Source: a virus (taxonomy: Duplodnaviria > Heunggongvirae > Uroviricota > Caudoviricetes). Taken from it: a stretch of 17,384 nucleotides of DNA. The notes under the pieces are model-generated. The model ran no database searches and was not told the DNA's origin. It was given only the letters and a program-made list of their open reading frames with translations. Positions 2,891 to 15,853 of this stretch are shown here, in pieces (position 1 is the first letter of the stretch; each line of letters starts with the position of its first letter). The stretch lies in the IMG/VR virus record IMGVR_UViG_2675903433_000036, positions 1-17,384 of that record, one strand, 5' to 3'. Made by a program: the position numbers and the translations under genes.

Positions 2891-3046
2891 TTACTCCTCA
2901 GGTTCGTAAGCTGTGAAGACAGCGACCTCCGTCTGGCCGGTTCGGATTCGTACCTCGCAGAGGTCTTTCCTCGTTACCAGTGCCGTCACTATGACGGTTA
3001 AACAGATGACGATCAGGGCGACTAACATCGCCTTTTGCTGCTTCAT
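2891..3046 (-). CDS. hokD: Hok/Gef-family membrane toxin (type I toxin), HokD/RelF-like
   Basis: 51 aa, MKQQKAMLVALIVICLTVIVTALVTRKDLCEVRIRTGQTEVAVFTAYEPEE: single TM helix plus the conserved C-terminal hok motif, nearly identical to my recollection of RelF/HokD. SD AAGGAG 9 nt upstream of ATG at 3046. The 70-aa ORF-track version is an in-frame upstream extension. Confidence 0.85.
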   Translation of the reverse strand: MKQQKAMLVALIVICLTVIVTALVTRKDLCEVRIRTGQTEVAVFTAYEPEE

Positions 3047-3225
3047 AGCCTGCTTCTCCTTGCCTTTCGGCACGTAAGAGGCTAACCTACGTTTGTGAAG
3101 CATAGATTGGGCCTCAGATTAATGTTAAGCGTCTTGCAGGACGCGTAATGTTAACTGGGGCTTTTCTCTATCTGCCTTTTGGTGTTCATGCCTGAGGCAG
3201 ATAGCCTCAAGCACCCATTATGATT

Positions 3226-7346: not shown

Positions 7347-8204
7347 TTACCCCCTGAAGCCTGGCGGGATCGCACTATCCGGTAGCGAAACGGTGTTAAC
7401 CTGTCGGAGTAACGTCTCAGGTCGAACACCTTTCGGCGCGAACAGGCCCTGGTATTCATTGGCGATACTGTGTCGAATCACCTGCTCGGGTGTAAAACCC
7501 TGCTGGCGGAATTTTTCCAGCTCCCGTATCGCCCCGTTAGCGCCCTGCTCCGTTCGAATCGGTTTTCGCAATGCCTGGCGAAATTCAACCCACTCACGCC
7601 AAAGCGAGACAGAAATCCAGTTCGGCAAAGCAATATCCAGAGGGTCAAACTTTTTGACACCTCGATTCCCCCGGGGGGGATTTAGGGGGGGATCTGTTTT
7701 TAGATCTTTATCTGTATCTTTATTAGTTGCCTTTGTGTTGACATCATGTTCAAACACCACTTCAACATCTGTTTGAACACCTGTTAAATTTCTCTCTTGT
7801 TTTTTTTGAACATCTGCTTCCTTTCTGCTTCTTCTGGCCTGAACAGATGCTTTTCCTGCGGCTGATTTTTTGGTTAATTTTTCCCTGACTGATGCCAGAT
7901 CTTCCTCAATCCGAAGATGCACCCATTCCTCGCCGTTATCGCAAAAAAACTCCTGCAAGGATGGTTCAACATCAGCCCATCGCTCGTTAGTCAGACGGGC
8001 AATTTTTGCCAGTCTGTTTTTAGGTATTGGCTTTCCTGTTTGCCAGTAATTGAACATCAGCAACAAATACGCACCATGCTCCTCTGCTGACAAATGCATG
8101 GTGTCAGCCAAGTAATCAGCTATGTACAGTTGCATGTATGGTAATGCGGCCATAATTGCCCCGTATGATGCTGCCCGGTGGCTTAGAATAAGCACAAACA
8201 GCAT
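7347..8204 (-). CDS. ydaU: replication initiator, O-like (YdaU/DUF1376-type), containing the candidate origin
   Basis: 285-aa ORF. The start is uncertain: ATG 8204 has no SD, alternatives at 8153 and 8135. A Lys/Glu-rich central linker is encoded by an AT-rich repeat-laden segment. Symbol from recalled Rac length and synteny. Confidence 0.65.
   Translation of the reverse strand: MLFVLILSHRAASYGAIMAALPYMQLYIADYLADTMHLSAEEHGAYLLLMFNYWQTGKPIPKNRLAKIARLTNERWADVEPSLQEFFCDNGEEWVHLRIEEDLASVREKLTKKSAAGKASVQARRSRKEADVQKKQERNLTGVQTDVEVVFEHDVNTKATNKDTDKDLKTDPPLNPPRGNRGVKKFDPLDIALPNWISVSLWREWVEFRQALRKPIRTEQGANGAIRELEKFRQQGFTPEQVIRHSIANEYQGLFAPKGVRPETLLRQVNTVSLPDSAIPPGFRG
7667..7852. repeat. iteron-like direct and inverted repeats plus C5/G7/G7 homopolymer tracts inside the O-like gene; candidate replication origin
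   Basis: CCCCCGGGGGGG at 7668-7679 and GGGGGGG at 7685-7691; palindrome GATCTgtttttAGATC at 7691-7706; ATCTTTAT twice; ATGTTCAAACACC and CTGTTTGAACACC; GAACATCTGCTT and GAACAGATGCTT. Confidence 0.45.
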
Positions 8205-8216
8205 GGAAACTTTTGC

Positions 8217-8639
8217 TTAATGAACAATGACAGAATCTTCGGAAGACCCGCCGCCGCTGAAATGCGCTTTCCGGTAAACGGCCTGGACTGCATCATCATG
8301 CGCATCAATTGCCGTACTCAACGCTTCCTGCGCCGCCAGTAATGCACGGCGTTCCAGGGTATCGAAGATGCAGAGTCGGTGACGCAGCTCGCGCGGAATA
8401 ATTGCCAGAACCGCAGGGATCAGTTTCTGAATTTTTTCCCTTTGCGCTTTCGTTTCACCTTTCAACCAACGGTGATAGATATTCTGCTGATTGTTCCAGT
8501 CCTTGCCTGGTACCAGGGGCAATTCGCCGCCCCCCTGGCGCAGATATTCTTCAGTAATTGCGTTAGCGACCCACGCCTGCCCTTTTTCGGCTGCCAGGGC
8601 TAACAACACTGATTCGATGTGCTCATGCCTGATTTTCAT
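8217..8639 (-). CDS. ydaT: YdaT-like protein (reported toxin partner of YdaS in Rac-type prophages); occupies the cII position
   Basis: 140 aa, SD AGGAG 8 nt upstream of ATG 8639; overlaps the Cro-like gene by 17 nt. Symbol from recalled length and synteny. Confidence 0.6.
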   Translation of the reverse strand: MKIRHEHIESVLLALAAEKGQAWVANAITEEYLRQGGGELPLVPGKDWNNQQNIYHRWLKGETKAQREKIQKLIPAVLAIIPRELRHRLCIFDTLERRALLAAQEALSTAIDAHDDAVQAVYRKAHFSGGGSSEDSVIVH

Positions 8640-8898
8640 GAATCAACTCCTGTGCATTTGGTGTGTTAGCCTTACATCCAACAGGTAAACCATCGGTCGG
8701 ATTCGGGTAGATATCAGGCCGGAGTTCATGAGGTGTAACCTCGAAATTCGTTACTTCAGCAACACGTAATGCTTTTTCAGGGCTGAATCTTTCATAGCCC
8801 CCCAGCACTCGACTTACATGCACCTGAGATAAACCCGTTAGCTTCCCAAACTGTAACTGGGTGATATGTTTCTCTTTTAAATAGTCTCTTAAGTTCAT
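8623..8898 (-). CDS. ydaS: Cro-like HTH regulator (YdaS-type)
   Basis: MNLRDYLKEKHITQLQFGKLTGLSQVHVSRVLGG is an HTH. ATG at 8898 with SD GAAGG; first gene of the rightward operon, divergent from the repressor. The ORF-track TTG start at 8904 is less likely. Confidence 0.65.
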   Translation of the reverse strand: MNLRDYLKEKHITQLQFGKLTGLSQVHVSRVLGGYERFSPEKALRVAEVTNFEVTPHELRPDIYPNPTDGLPVGCKANTPNAQELIHENQA

Positions 8899-9005: not shown

Positions 9006-9467
9006 ATGAAAAAAACACGCGAAGTGATTGCAACTCCAGAAGCGAGCAAGAATTTAAAAGCCGCATGGAATGCAAGAAAAAAAGAGCTGAAGCTGACTCA
9101 AGAGCTGGCGGCTGAGTTGTTGGGATTCGAATCTCAAGGCACCGTTAGCCAGTATCTGAACGGCAAGATACCGGTAAATACCGACGCTGCGCTAAAATTT
9201 GCGGCTCTGTTAAAGGTAAAACCAGAGGACATTCGAGAAGACCTTAAAGACTTAATGAATTATGTAAGATCATCAGATACTTATGATGATAGCTTTTCAG
9301 GCAAAGGATGGAGGCTGGTCAATGAAGAACAGGCAGAGTTACTTAACCTCTTCGAGATTCTACCTGCGTCAGAAAAAGCCAAACTCCTTAACCAGCTACG
9401 TGGACTAAACAAGCTCTATGAGGAAGCCTTCGAGAACATGCTGGCACTAAAGAAACGTAACCAGTAG
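9006..9467 (+). CDS. racR: prophage repressor, XRE-family HTH, non-LexA-like (RacR-like)
   Basis: 153 aa; HTH LTQELAAELLGFESQGTVSQYLNGK; no peptidase S24 domain. Divergent from the Cro-like gene and followed by a terminator. Symbol is by analogy. Confidence 0.6.
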   Translation: MKKTREVIATPEASKNLKAAWNARKKELKLTQELAAELLGFESQGTVSQYLNGKIPVNTDAALKFAALLKVKPEDIREDLKDLMNYVRSSDTYDDSFSGKGWRLVNEEQAELLNLFEILPASEKAKLLNQLRGLNKLYEEAFENMLALKKRNQ

Positions 9468-9493
9468 CCACCACTCACTACCCTATCCACAAC

Positions 9494-9523
9494 AAAAAAA
9501 CCGACGTCTTAGTCGGTTTTTTT
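9494..9523 (+). terminator. Rho-independent terminator after the repressor gene (A-tract / hairpin / T-tract, potentially bidirectional)
   Basis: AAAAAAA-CCGAC-GTCTTA-GTCGG-TTTTTTT. Confidence 0.6.
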
Positions 9524-9548
9524 GTGCCATAACTTCTGCAAATCAGCT

Positions 9549-9649
9549 GTGTAACTAATATTTTTCCCTTGAAAAAACATTTACATAGTTACTAAATCAA
9601 AAGCATCATACTCCATACTGTTGACTTAAAATATCCGTGTTACTAATAT
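9549..9649 (+). promoter_or_regulatory. strong pL-like promoter with three copies of a GT(T/A)ACTAAT operator-like motif
   Basis: -35 TTGACT (9621-9626), 17-nt spacer, -10 TAATAT (9644-9649). Motif copies: GTGTAACTAATAT (9549-9561), GTTACTAAAT (9588-9597), GTGTTACTAATAT (9637-9649, overlapping the -10). Confidence 0.55.
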
Positions 9650-9720
9650 CCTCATCAAGAACAGCACGGCGCTGTAGGTTTTAGTTCCGCCACCCGGCGT
9701 TAAGGGGAAATGAGGTCAAC

Positions 9721-9873
9721 ATGGATACTATCGATCTTGGCAACAACGAATCTCTGGTATGTGGCGTGTTTCCCAATCAGGACGGCACATTCACCGCCAT
9801 GACGTATACCAAAAGCAAATCGTTTAAAACCGAAGCTGGCGCACGTCGCTGGCTTGCCAAAAATACCAGCTAA
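9721..9873 (+). CDS. small early-left protein (50 aa; YdaF/YdaG-like by position)
   Basis: SD GAGGT 6 nt upstream of ATG 9721; MDTIDLGNNESLVCGVFPNQDGTFTAMTYTKSKSFKTEAGARRWLAKNTS. Not in the ORF track. Confidence 0.55.
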   Translation: MDTIDLGNNESLVCGVFPNQDGTFTAMTYTKSKSFKTEAGARRWLAKNTS

Positions 9874-10070
9874 ACAATTTATTGGATTAATTCAATATTC
9901 TTGCTGTAGGGGTATAGCCGAGGCCACCAAAGCCCGGAGGTGGTGAAATAAAACCGGGCACAACACGAAGGCGCATTTCCGATATCCATAAAGAGTCGGT
10001 CTTGTCTGTTAAATTTAAATGGTGGGAGTGCGCCTCCGGTTGTAAATAACGACATTGCTGTGTGTAGTCT

Positions 10071-10115
10071 TGGCGGCATCAGTTCTACTCCGTGGCTGCC
10101 CTGCCGCCCCTTTTT
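10071..10115 (+). terminator. terminator-like long-loop hairpin (tL1-like) within a 400-bp structured leader
   Basis: GGCGGCA (10071-10077) pairs with TGCCGCC (10103-10109), followed by CCTTTTTAAAG. Confidence 0.3.
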
Positions 10116-10578
10116 AAAGTGAATTTTGTGATGCGGTGAATGCGGCTGAGCGCACGCGGCACAGTTAAAAGCATCAGTGTTATGGGTGGATTATCCGGCG
10201 TTAATTGTTAACTGGTTAACGTCACCTGGAGGCACCAGGCACCGCATCAACAAAGTTCACTTCAGTGATGAAAGGTGAGAGAAAATGATGGATGTAGCTA
10301 TTGAAAACCAGAACGGGTGGAATTATAGTGCACCTGCACCTCATAAAACGGGTGCCGGGATTTGCACCCCGATGATCACTAGAGCGCATAACCGCGCCAA
10401 AGCGTTTTTTTTATGCGTAAAGCGCAGCCACATTCAGATTATGGTGGGGCGTATGGGGCCGTTTTCGGGCGGGCCGGATTCTCTAGTGACCGGTAGTGCA
10501 AACCCTGTACGTCTCACCACCCATGAGATTTGCACCTCCGGTGGTGAGTTTACCAACTTATCACTAGAGGCTGCCATC

Positions 10579-11133
10579 ATGGCTACTATCCCTACCCTTT
10601 CTCACCCTGACGTAACCATCGAAAATGGTCGTGCTGTCACTACGTCTGTTGCAGTTGCAGAGTTTTTCCGCAAGCTGCATAAAAACGTCATTCAAAAAAT
10701 TGAAGCTCTGGAATGTTCCTCAGAATTCACTGAGCTTAATTTTAAGCCAAGTGAATACACCGACTCAACCGGGCGCAAACTCCCAATGTACCAAATCACC
10801 AAAAACGGCTTCGTTTTCCTGGTGATGGGTTTCACTGGCAAAAAAGCCGCTGCATTCAAAGAGGCCTACATCGCTGAGTTCGACCGCATGGAAGCAGAGC
10901 TACGCCAGAATAATACCACTCCCACAAACAAAATCATTCCGGGCGATGGGCGCACTCTGGTTGTTCGCTTCGACAAATTCGGCAACGTCGAATTCACTGA
11001 AACCGTTCCTGATGGCGCTCTCGTCTGTACCCTGGACACTTTCCGCCTTTATCTGGAGAAACAGGGCTGGACTCTTGTAAACCGAAGCGCAATTAAAAAT
11101 ATGACCGTCGAGCAGTTGCTGAGTATTAAATAG
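10579..11133 (+). CDS. Rha-family phage regulatory protein (Phage_pRha domain)
   Basis: Matches my recollection of the Rha domain: AVTTSVAVAEFFRKLHKNVIQKIEAL...ELNFKPSEYTDSTGRKLPMYQITKNGFVFLVMGFTGKKAAAFKEAYIAEFDRMEA. Internal ATG 10579 with SD AGAGG is preferred; the ORF-track start at 10285 adds about 98 compositionally odd, repeat-containing residues. Confidence 0.65.
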   Translation: MATIPTLSHPDVTIENGRAVTTSVAVAEFFRKLHKNVIQKIEALECSSEFTELNFKPSEYTDSTGRKLPMYQITKNGFVFLVMGFTGKKAAAFKEAYIAEFDRMEAELRQNNTTPTNKIIPGDGRTLVVRFDKFGNVEFTETVPDGALVCTLDTFRLYLEKQGWTLVNRSAIKNMTVEQLLSIK

Positions 11134-11179
11134 TTTTCTGGAATTTTCTTAATACGAGAAATTTATTAAGGAGATAATT

Positions 11180-11401
11180 ATGATTGCTCATCACTTCGGA
11201 ACTGATGAAATACCACGTCAGTGTGTGACTCCTGGCGATTATGTTCTTCATGAAGGTCGGACATATATCGCCTCGGCAAACAATATTAAAAAGCGAAAAC
11301 TTTATATTCGTAGCCTGACTACAAAAACATGCATTTCTGACTGCATGATTAAAGTCTTCCTCGGCCGTGATGGTTTACCTGTAAAGGCGGAGTCATGGTA
11401 A
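11180..11401 (+). CDS. kilR: KilR-like small protein (host-killing / cell-division inhibitor of Rac-type prophages)
   Basis: 73 aa with strong SD AAGGAG. Symbol from recalled Rac length and position. Confidence 0.5.
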
Positions 11402-15424: not shown

Positions 15425-15651
15425 GCGCAGCCATAAAGCTCACAGGAGAAAAACCAGTGCTATACACAAAAGTCAAACCATGTCCGTTTTGTGGTTGTCC
15501 ATCAGTAACGGTGAAAGCCATTTCAGGATATTACCGCGCAAAGTGTAACGGATGCGAATCCCGAACTGGCTATAGTGGAAGTGAAAAAGAAGCACTCGAA
15601 AGATGGAATAAACGAACTACTGGAAATAATAATGGAGGTGTTCATGTATAA
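15415..15651 (+). CDS. ralR: Lar/RalR-like restriction-alleviation protein (zinc-ribbon, CPFCG motif)
   Basis: [47 protein letters not shown] matches my recollection of the Lar family. Start at 15415 or 15421, the latter overlapping the exo stop. Confidence 0.5.
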
Positions 15652-15853
15652 AATTACTGTCACTATTGAAAAGGAAGGTGGCACTCCTACTAACTGGACA
15701 AGATATTCAAAATCTAAATTAACGAAATCAGAATGCGAAAAAATGCTCTCTGGGAAAAAAGAAGCAGGCGTTTCCAGAGAGCAGAAAGTAAAACTGATAA
15801 ATTTTAATTGCGAGAAACTTCAGTCCTCGAGAATTGCATTGTATTCAAATTAA
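15644..15853 (+). CDS. ydaC: small hypothetical protein (YdaC-like, 69 aa)
   Basis: ATG 15644 preceded by GGAGGTG; [35 protein letters not shown]... AT-rich. The ORF-track 92-aa version begins upstream in the overlap with the Lar-like gene. Confidence 0.45.
   Translation: MYKITVTIEKEGGTPTNWTRYSKSKLTKSECEKMLSGKKEAGVSREQKVKLINFNCEKLQSSRIALYSN

Follow-up and report, generated by a model that had tools for sequence, protein, structure and literature searches.

Phages P1 and P7 carry the immI operon, with the c4 antisense RNA, icd and ant, which was reportedly described by Citron and Schuster in 1990. Here we analyse a locus resembling such an immunity region, found in a stretch of 17,384 nucleotides (nt) of IMG/VR virus record IMGVR_UViG_2675903433_000036 (the window, by which we mean the whole stretch of DNA analysed), which is a Rac-like prophage carried by Shiga-toxin-producing Escherichia coli. 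We consider, with a probability of roughly 85%, that positions 10301-10590 form a complete antisense-RNA immunity cassette which gates the start of a Rha-family gene, and that the long open reading frame (ORF) running through it is comparable to eta of phage P4. Repeated motifs in this region had been noticed in an initial annotation and taken for regulatory sites, possibly for Rha-type control, lying inside an over-extended 282-amino-acid gene call. The repeats are almost certainly the target and recognition boxes of a C4-type RNA: boxes a1 and b1 in an IsrK-like leader RNA, recognition sequences b' and a' in the C4-type RNA itself, and boxes a2 and b2 in front of the Rha start codon (Table 1). 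The underlying biology is not new, since the mechanism was worked out in P1, P4, N15 and Gifsy-1. The same pair of Rfam families coincides, in the same order, with immunity RNAs that have been defined by experiment, namely those of P4 (seqA, CI), N15 (leader, CA) and a P1-like phage (a1b1, c4). The closest match to the window is the P4 immunity region, followed by the isrK-orf45-anrP region of Gifsy-1 and then by immI of P1/P7.

In the P4 immunity region every part of the cassette is present in the same order, with the a and b boxes laid out alike and the -10 element TATAGT at the same distance from the leader fold as in the window. P4 kil begins with exactly the junction GAGGCTGCCATCATGGCTAC that is seen at 10579, and the two nested proteins share their opening residues (MAT..T.SHP), the resemblance to Kil being confined to the first ~10 residues. 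The 214-amino-acid P4 ORF eta (8168-8812, - strand) starts upstream of the PLE promoter, spans seqA-CI-seqC and ends as kil, and the long ORF of the window is built likewise. PMC10111431, drawing on Forti 1999, reports that Kil is made when read-through occasionally occurs, that translation of full-length Eta depends on transcription from the upstream promoter, and that termination is prevented by the translation of Eta; it also reports that nonsense mutations in eta cause termination. The two loci differ in the cargo (a 65-amino-acid Kil in P4 and a 184-amino-acid Rha-domain protein in the window) and in the gap between leader and C4 (~107 nt versus 24 nt). In addition, P4 is a satellite, whereas the cassette of the window is placed in a Rac-like lambdoid early-left operon, after DicF and before kilR-recET; and eta is coupled to an alpA homologue (PMC10111431), whereas the long ORF of the window is not adjacent to an upstream gene.

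Gifsy-1, like the window, is a lambdoid prophage (Hershko-Shalev et al. 2016, PMC4825925). Its IsrK small RNA (sRNA) is made from a promoter of its own and ends at its own terminator, and read-through leads into an antirepressor-like gene downstream; the protein at the position corresponding to Rha, AnrP, has been described as antirepressor-like (PMC4825925). The processed RNA STnc1160 downstream of IsrK occupies the position of C4, and ATG 10441 of the window has its counterpart in the first AUG of orf45, at nt 107 counted from the start site of isrK. Titration by the leader was shown with the compensatory mutants G28/C162 and G31/C159 (PMC4825925), and this G28/G31:C159/C162 pairing corresponds by position to a1:a' in the window. 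A difference lies in the frame: orf45 terminates at the start codon of anrP (AUGA) and acts by translational coupling, whereas in the window no stop separates the frame from Rha, and the frame also reaches back upstream beyond the promoter. The published Gifsy-1 model also has no step in which C4 represses the ribosome-binding site through a2 and b2, a step that the window sequence clearly allows.

In P1/P7, with c4, icd and ant in the operon (PMC12197685), the layout is a1 b1, then C4 with b' and a', then a2 b2, where b2 sits on the ribosome-binding site of the gene that follows, as in the window. The specificities of P1 and P7 differ through co-ordinated box changes, and likewise among E. 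coli prophages. The P1-like phage RCS47 gives both Rfam matches and has the start MATVPTPTHPEF after b2. In contrast to the window, the P1-like sequence has stops in the frame over the cassette, so that an eta-like long ORF is absent, and the gene regulated in P1/P7 is the small icd followed by ant, not Rha.

The five motif copies that had been noticed in the window are all exact and at the right positions. The a box, GATTTGCACC, occurs on the + strand at 10359 and 10527, and the b box, TCACTAGAG, on the + strand at 10376 and 10561 and as its reverse complement at 10481; the 17.4-kb window holds no further exact copies. With one mismatch allowed window-wide, 5 matches were found against 1.8 expected for one motif, and 3 against 2.3 expected for the other. 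Compared with shuffles, such counts have no significance on their own and were not used as evidence; the significance of the repeats therefore rests on their arrangement and on the comparative data. As to the arrangement, several elements had been overlooked at first. The b repeat is really 10 nt long (ATCACTAGAG, 10375-10384 and 10560-10569), and the a box also has an inverse partner, GTGCAAA (10496-10502), which follows the inverse b box downstream at a distance of 7 nt. The boxes accordingly succeed one another as a1-b1 ... b'-a' ... a2-b2, which is the order demanded by antiparallel RNA pairing. Inside the supposed N-terminal codons there are also a sigma-70 promoter (10301-10329) and a T8-tailed hairpin ending at 10412, and the 3' strand of the C4 stem has a complement in a conserved GGTGGTGAG at 10540-10548.

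The positions of the boxes in the two RNAs are those expected of recognition loops and their targets. C4 folds into a 17-bp closing stem (10442-10458 with 10503-19) bearing hairpin 1 (10459-10472) and hairpin 2 (10473-10494), with a minimum free energy (MFE) of -41.6 kcal/mol (z = -3.1). In the C4 alignment, CUCUAGUGA is found in the loop of the second hairpin (b'), and GUGCAAA in the single-stranded junction after it (a'). The leader is predicted to fold into hairpin 1, hairpin 2 with a1 in its loop, a single-stranded b1, and a short hairpin with the T8 tail; in the isrK alignment, GAUUUGCAC (a1) is correspondingly in the loop of hairpin 2 and UCACUAGAG (b1) in the single-stranded stretch beyond. 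The complements in the window are exact over 7 nt for a and over 9-10 nt for b. The predicted binding energy of the C4 loops is -30.6 kcal/mol against a2..b2 and -28.8 kcal/mol against a1..b1, and 0 of 500 shuffled targets gave a value as low; the b':b2 duplex gives -14.4 kcal/mol. Across 26 sequences the helix formed by 10513-10521 and 10540-10548 is 93.6% paired, with 4 pairs changed on both sides (slid controls 33-60%), and this suggests that the unprocessed read-through transcript may adopt an alternative fold with a2 in the loop of that helix.

Comparative evidence was drawn from loci gathered by the Rha part alone (residues 99-282), so that the upstream region was no selection criterion. 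Among the 35 distinct upstream sequences of the E. coli group, nearly all of the variation is inside the six boxes. The prophages of this group show 20 distinct box combinations, in which no fewer than 6 a-types and 10 b-types reassort independently. The three copies of each box change together and so remain complementary, over at least 7 bp in the case of a, over 6-10 bp in that of b1:b' and over 9-13 bp in that of b2:b'. The same arrangement extends to distant loci, the hosts of which are Citrobacter, Symbiopectobacterium, Arsenophonus, Marinomonas, Pseudoalteromonas, Enterovibrio and Photobacterium. When 20 of these were scanned, C4 was found in 16 and isrK in 15, directly upstream of the Rha homologue. 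In the 14 distant loci taken in detail, a1 and b1 occupy isrK positions 26 and about 41, respectively, a2 begins 2-9 nt after the end of C4, and the box sequences themselves are unrelated between the loci. Box b2 lies 31-39 nt past the end of C4 and abuts or covers the Shine-Dalgarno (SD) sequence of the next ATG in 15 of 15 cases (the window and 14 diverse loci).

Compensatory change is also evident pair by pair. In 26 sequences, pairing in C4 helices 3-5 reaches 98-100% (slid controls 37-47%), and 16 of their 27 pairs have changed on both sides. The intermolecular helices behave in the same way: a1:a' is 99.5% paired (6 of 7 pairs changed on both sides) and b1:b' 83.7% paired (9 of 9), both over the 26 sequences, and the a':a2 helices are 82-89% paired (6 of 7). 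In the controls on these pair counts, none of 500 shuffles reached the observed scores, and slid controls gave 27-53%. The cassette, moreover, moves independently of the protein behind it. Loci L061 and L065 share the boxes of the window and are 98.6% identical to it upstream, with a Rha that is only 82% identical, whereas L038 has a Rha that is 90% identical and different boxes; the same cassette also stands ahead of the unrelated cargo genes Ant, 'peptidase' and Kil. As the boxes track the RNA loops as complements, and as cassette and Rha reassort, protein-binding sites are excluded. Judged from the sequences, the boxes are RNA-RNA sites, and the suggestion of Rha-type control has to be abandoned, because the boxes co-vary with the C4 loops and not with the Rha protein; cassette and protein reassort freely.

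Loci L048 and L088 were considered as cassette-free Rha controls and were rejected, because Rfam finds a related RNA, sRNA-Xcc1, in the same place. This family (RF02221, 67-76 bits) stands in the place of C4 in L048 (1367-1456), L013 (1378-1462) and L014 (1343-1432), at an equal distance from the start codon, and the C4 and sRNA-Xcc1 families of Rfam may be one family split in two. In L005, from Symbiopectobacterium, two complete isrK + C4 cassettes in tandem (1252-1446 and 2211-2399) flank a Rha-like gene upstream and downstream.

Table 1. Features of the cassette and of the genes around it, in window coordinates.
Feature	Position	Strand	Details
Long ORF, 282 amino acids, eta-like	10285..11133	+	RefSeq WP_000887681.1, 'Rha family phage regulatory protein'
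Internal sigma-70-type promoter, TTGAAA-17-TATAGT	10301..10329	+	10/12 matches; best promoter-like site in 9400-11300
IsrK/seqA-like leader RNA	10336..10412	+	Rfam RF01394 isrK, 62 bits (gathering 50), model positions 1-77 of 77
Box a1, GATTTGCACC	10359..10368	+	Core UUUGCAC 10361-10367 pairs with a'
Box b1, ATCACTAGAG	10375..10384	+	Pairs with b' loop; duplex -13.2 kcal/mol
C4/CI/CA-type antisense RNA	10437..10524	+	Rfam RF01695 C4, 78.1 bits (gathering 45), model positions 1-87 of 87
ATG at 5' edge of C4	10441..10443	+	In Rfam C4 consensus; invariant in 26 sequences (A106 T107 G108, alignment A1)
b' recognition sequence, UCUCUAGUGA	10480..10489	+	Loop of C4 hairpin 2
a' recognition sequence, GUGCAAA	10496..10502	+	Single-stranded junction 3' of hairpin 2
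Box a2, GATTTGCACC	10527..10536	+	Begins 3 nt beyond C4 match
GGUGGUGAG	10540..10548	+	Complementary to C4 closing-stem 3' strand 10513-10521 (CUCACCACC)
Box b2, ATCACTAGAGG	10560..10570	+	Overlaps SD AGAGG 10566-10570 of ATG 10579; 10 contiguous pairs with b'
Nested Rha-family gene, 184 amino acids, kil-like position	10579..11133	+	Pfam Phage_pRha, E = 5e-31

The internal promoter of the window is the equivalent of PLE in P4 and PisrK in Gifsy-1. It ends 6 nt before isrK model position 1, with a predicted start site at about 10336. In relatives the promoter is either kept or swapped for another one, and L050 has a different promoter, TTGACG-17-TATATT, in the same place. Across 211 phage records, homology to the cassette starts at query position 50-53, that is, at 10334-10337, the predicted RNA start site, and it stops about 12 codons into the cargo gene. 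A hairpin pairing CCUC with the GAGG of the SD was seen in the window leader and was dropped as a conserved feature, since b2 varies among relatives and its partner does not. The first ~10 codons are alike across unrelated cargo: MATIPTLSHPD in Rha (window 10579-10610), MATTLTPSHPE in P4 kil (L108 8360-8330, - strand) and MATVPTPTHPE at the icd position of a P1-like phage (L109, ~2240-2275). The cassette seems to carry the start of its cargo along.

ATG 10579 is very probably the regulated start of Rha. The observation that it has an SD of its own, (A)GAGG at 10566-10570, 8 nt before the ATG, was correct, and so was its designation as a genuine start: b2 is followed by this ATG in all relatives, and all those examined, from Citrobacter to Marinomonas and Photobacterium, use it, including those without the long ORF. 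Most of the distant relatives close the frame shortly upstream of it. The Phage_pRha domain (107.5 bits, cut-off 29.9) covers residues 119-203 of the 282-amino-acid ORF, and the Rha part evolves as a protein, with minimum changes of 124/83/246 by codon position (p = 2e-21 for the third-position excess). The 98 codons upstream are of another kind. Their minimum changes are 78/78/84, with no third-position excess (p = 0.86 versus uniform), and their substitution pattern differs from that of Rha (contingency p = 1e-6). Their composition is indeed atypical, as had been remarked, the GC content by codon position being flat (0.51/0.51/0.53) where that of the Rha part is periodic (0.52/0.38/0.52). 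We agree that the repeats are regulatory rather than part of a protein product.

These data might suggest that the 294 nt upstream of 10579 are purely a non-coding leader, that the 282-amino-acid call is an annotation artefact and that only the 184-amino-acid Rha is made. Apart from the lack of codon-position bias and the flat GC content, it can be said for this explanation that the stretch is taken up by a promoter, two structured RNAs and a terminator-like hairpin, and that the frame is interrupted by stops in distant Rha relatives, in N15 and in the P1-like phage. The c4 region of the P1-like phage, annotated as intergenic, still gives a tblastn match with its stops included, so that protein similarity can be a shadow of RNA. 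It is hard, however, to reconcile a non-coding leader with the preservation of the frame. ATG 10285, 16 nt upstream of the -35 element of the internal promoter, opens a frame that stays open through the whole cassette into Rha. The SD-like sequence ahead of this ATG is present as claimed (GGTGAGAG), and both ATG and SD are conserved at -294/-297 in relatives. The long frame is stop-free in 33 of 35 distinct relatives in spite of the wholesale replacement of boxes, while each of the other two frames has 4-8 stops. The sole length change that recurs in many relatives is 3 nt, in a2. The polymorphic stop sites of the 35 distinct sequences number 0 in the long frame and 14 and 15 in the other two, and 0 versus 29 would have a chance of roughly 8e-6 if stops fell evenly, in a test that treats sites as independent, which they strictly are not. 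Furthermore, P4 is arranged alike, its eta being reported as translated (PMC10111431), and four other phages have the cassette deep in long ORFs that start 230-360 nt upstream and abut a preceding gene (cII and others), to which they are coupled. We thus regard the purely non-coding leader as unlikely.

The frame is maintained by selection without amino-acid constraint. That codons without protein evolution should nonetheless be kept open is a paradox, which is resolved by the nested arrangement of P4 eta and kil. We read the window likewise as nested genes, a transit frame from 10285 and a C4-gated Rha gene from 10579. The 282-amino-acid ORF would then not be a simple over-extension; its frame is probably kept open for the transit of ribosomes, and we slightly favour the view that it is truly translated for read-through. 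The call of over-extension was thus right in that ATG 10579 is the regulated start and the 98 codons are not protein-like, and it fell short in that the frame remains free of stops in nearly all distinct relatives. Similarly, conservation of the N-terminal 98 residues in homologues, which the initial annotation had named as contrary evidence, is found for the long frame and its ATG and not at the amino-acid level. ATG 10441, at the edge of C4, is in frame with Rha as well.

A six-codon mini-ORF (ATG AAA GGT GAG AGA AAA TGA) is present at 10268-10288 on the + strand, and its TGA overlaps ATG 10285 in an ATGA-type junction. It ends one codon later in most relatives, and it may be due to chance or may be a coupling device.

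Several points weigh against our reading of a complete cassette within an eta-like frame, in addition to the non-independence of stop sites mentioned above. First, b':b2 is just 58.7% paired in the MAFFT alignment. This low figure is attributed to misalignment of the variable b2 in distant sequences; b2 was assessed instead by a direct search for complementarity, which gives 7-11 bp each. Second, the leader terminator is weak in this copy, with a stem of 3 G-C pairs before the T8 tail, the terminator scan made no call at the leader 3' end, and the MFE fold of the leader 3' end favours another 4-bp hairpin. Position 10405, in the 3' arm of the terminator stem (CCGC...GCGG changed to GCGT), is T here and G in 89 of 90 related cassettes; this rare change is what shortens the stem, and it could raise read-through into C4 and Rha. 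Third, with respect to the eta-like part, L044 and L071 carry 1-nt frameshifts, phages L111 and L116 and most distant relatives are without the long ORF, and both N15 and the P1-like phage have stops in the long frame. Fourth, the AlphaFold2 model (from a 21-sequence alignment) has a mean predicted local distance difference test (pLDDT) score of 35 and is too poor to judge the folding of residues 1-98. Finally, the start site, RNA ends, processing and repression at this locus are all taken over from homologues.

The G-to-T change at 10405 also alters codon 41 of the long frame, from V to F.

A different explanation is that Ash-Rha is a true two-domain protein, in which residues 14-108 form a folded, functional 'Ash' domain and the RNA matches and repeats are secondary. 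Phage_ASH (PF10554) matches these residues over its whole profile with E = 3e-15, thousands of database proteins have PF10554 plus PF09669, and the frame is conserved. However, the span of the match is the leader, C4, a2b2 and the first 10 codons of the nested gene, and the homology of the cassette begins at the RNA start site, not at the ATG. Unlike the adjoining Rha, this part lacks any third-position excess, and its variation is concentrated in six short boxes which change in concert for RNA complementarity and thereby produce radical amino-acid replacements. The AlphaFold2 confidence, in a model that is poor as a whole, is lowest there (pLDDT 21-29 for residues 1-100 and 33-53 for the rest). 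The translated cassettes of the P1-like phage and N15 are recognisably similar 'peptides' which contain stop codons, and the amino-acid likeness, the Phage_ASH match included, is therefore a shadow of RNA conservation. PF10554 also matches the obsolete 'cI' ORF of P4, which lies over the CI RNA, and not P4 epsilon, which is PF25738 (the observation concerns L108 8168-8584 and 7888-8175, both on the - strand). Taking all of this together, a genuine two-domain protein is very unlikely.

The statement of one paper that P4 epsilon is an 'Ash' protein was rejected, given that epsilon belongs to PF25738 and that the old cI ORF is what PF10554 matches. Phage_ASH is treated as a protein domain of unknown function in PMC8951638, and PMC8628076, a survey of P4-like satellites, uses PF10554 as its epsilon profile; that survey may therefore have detected the immunity cassette by means of PF10554. 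We tentatively propose, with the odds a little against us, that the Ash domain is the conceptual translation of a mobile RNA cassette (leader, C4, targets and about 10 cargo codons), stop-free only for the ribosome run-through that overrides the switch. If this were true, thousands of 'Ash family', 'Ash/Rha' and 'antirepressor' annotations in the prophages of enterobacteria would stand for a ribosome-transit frame, PF10554 would be the wrong marker for P4 epsilon, and the reassorted a and b boxes would serve as 'address' boxes of an RNA cross-talk network between co-resident prophages.

That the repeats are DNA operators for Rha itself or for the prophage repressor, as direct and inverted 9-10 bp copies in the 210 bp that precede the gene of a DNA-binding-type protein might lead one to think, is improbable in the extreme, because Watson-Crick and G-U complementarity to the C4 loops is meaningless for DNA operators, because the order a-b, b'-a', a-b is that of antiparallel RNA pairing, and because the same boxes are found with diverged Rha proteins and with unrelated cargo.

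We propose the following mechanism for the antisense-RNA cassette. The parts, their order, the complementarities, the overlap of b2 with the SD, the promoter motif and the kept frame are those of the window itself, and the steps are modelled on P1, P4, N15 and Gifsy-1. In the lysogen, the internal promoter would be active and would give mostly a short leader RNA ending at the T8 hairpin, and the read-through transcripts would be processed into a stable C4-like RNA. The tRNA-like acceptor stem followed by CC suggests processing of C4 by RNase P, as reported in work on P1. C4 would pair via b' and a' with a2 and b2 and block the ribosome at 10566-10579, so that Rha is off, and the loss of translation would probably lower downstream transcription too, of kilR and beyond. 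Pairing of C4 with a1 and b1 on the leader might have either of two outcomes, namely early termination, in the way of P4, or titration of C4 by the leader with Rha on, in the way of Gifsy-1 IsrK. Lastly, transcription from an upstream early promoter together with translation from ATG 10285 through the cassette would melt the RNA structures and allow expression insensitive to C4. Since ribosome run-through would thus override the switch, selection would keep the frame open and leave the amino acids unconstrained.

The genes of the prophage are in the order repressor, DUF1391, DicF, cassette, kilR, recE, recT, ralR, xis and int, and RefSeq has only the 282-amino-acid coding sequence over the cassette, with neither RNA annotated. 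Of 5426 complete E. coli genomes, 2715 contain matches to the cassette (median 2 and maximum 11 in a genome), and these go under various labels: Rha, ash, Icd-like or none at all. The presence of C4/isrK matches within genes of the Bro network was already noted by Mageeney et al. 2023. In place of vague repeats, the analysis thus offers a specific switch, in which an antisense RNA of a well-studied family would gate the antirepressor-like Rha and probably kilR-recET behind it as well. The modest gain is in annotation, and consists of two RNAs that the record lacks, a start that is probably nested, and evidence that Phage_ASH may be a translated RNA cassette.

Other RNA matches were found around the cassette. 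The DicF sRNA (54.7 bits against a threshold of 48) occupies 10059-10109 on the + strand, about 175 nt ahead of ATG 10285, and has a terminator-like hairpin (10092-10107); being upstream and on the same strand, it must be passed by transcripts from the early promoter before they reach the long ORF. The gap between DicF and ATG 10285 is filled by a sub-threshold STnc100-like match at 10099-10268, + strand (41.8 bits, threshold 47), and a full STnc100 copy lies at 487-677 on the - strand (138 bits). Elsewhere on the - strand there are the RalA antitoxin RNA (15650-15828, 219.6 bits), a sok/hok-type antitoxin (3041-3216, 120.1 bits) and a partial tRNA-like match (764-823, 37.3 bits, model positions 7-64), which may be the remnant of an attachment site.

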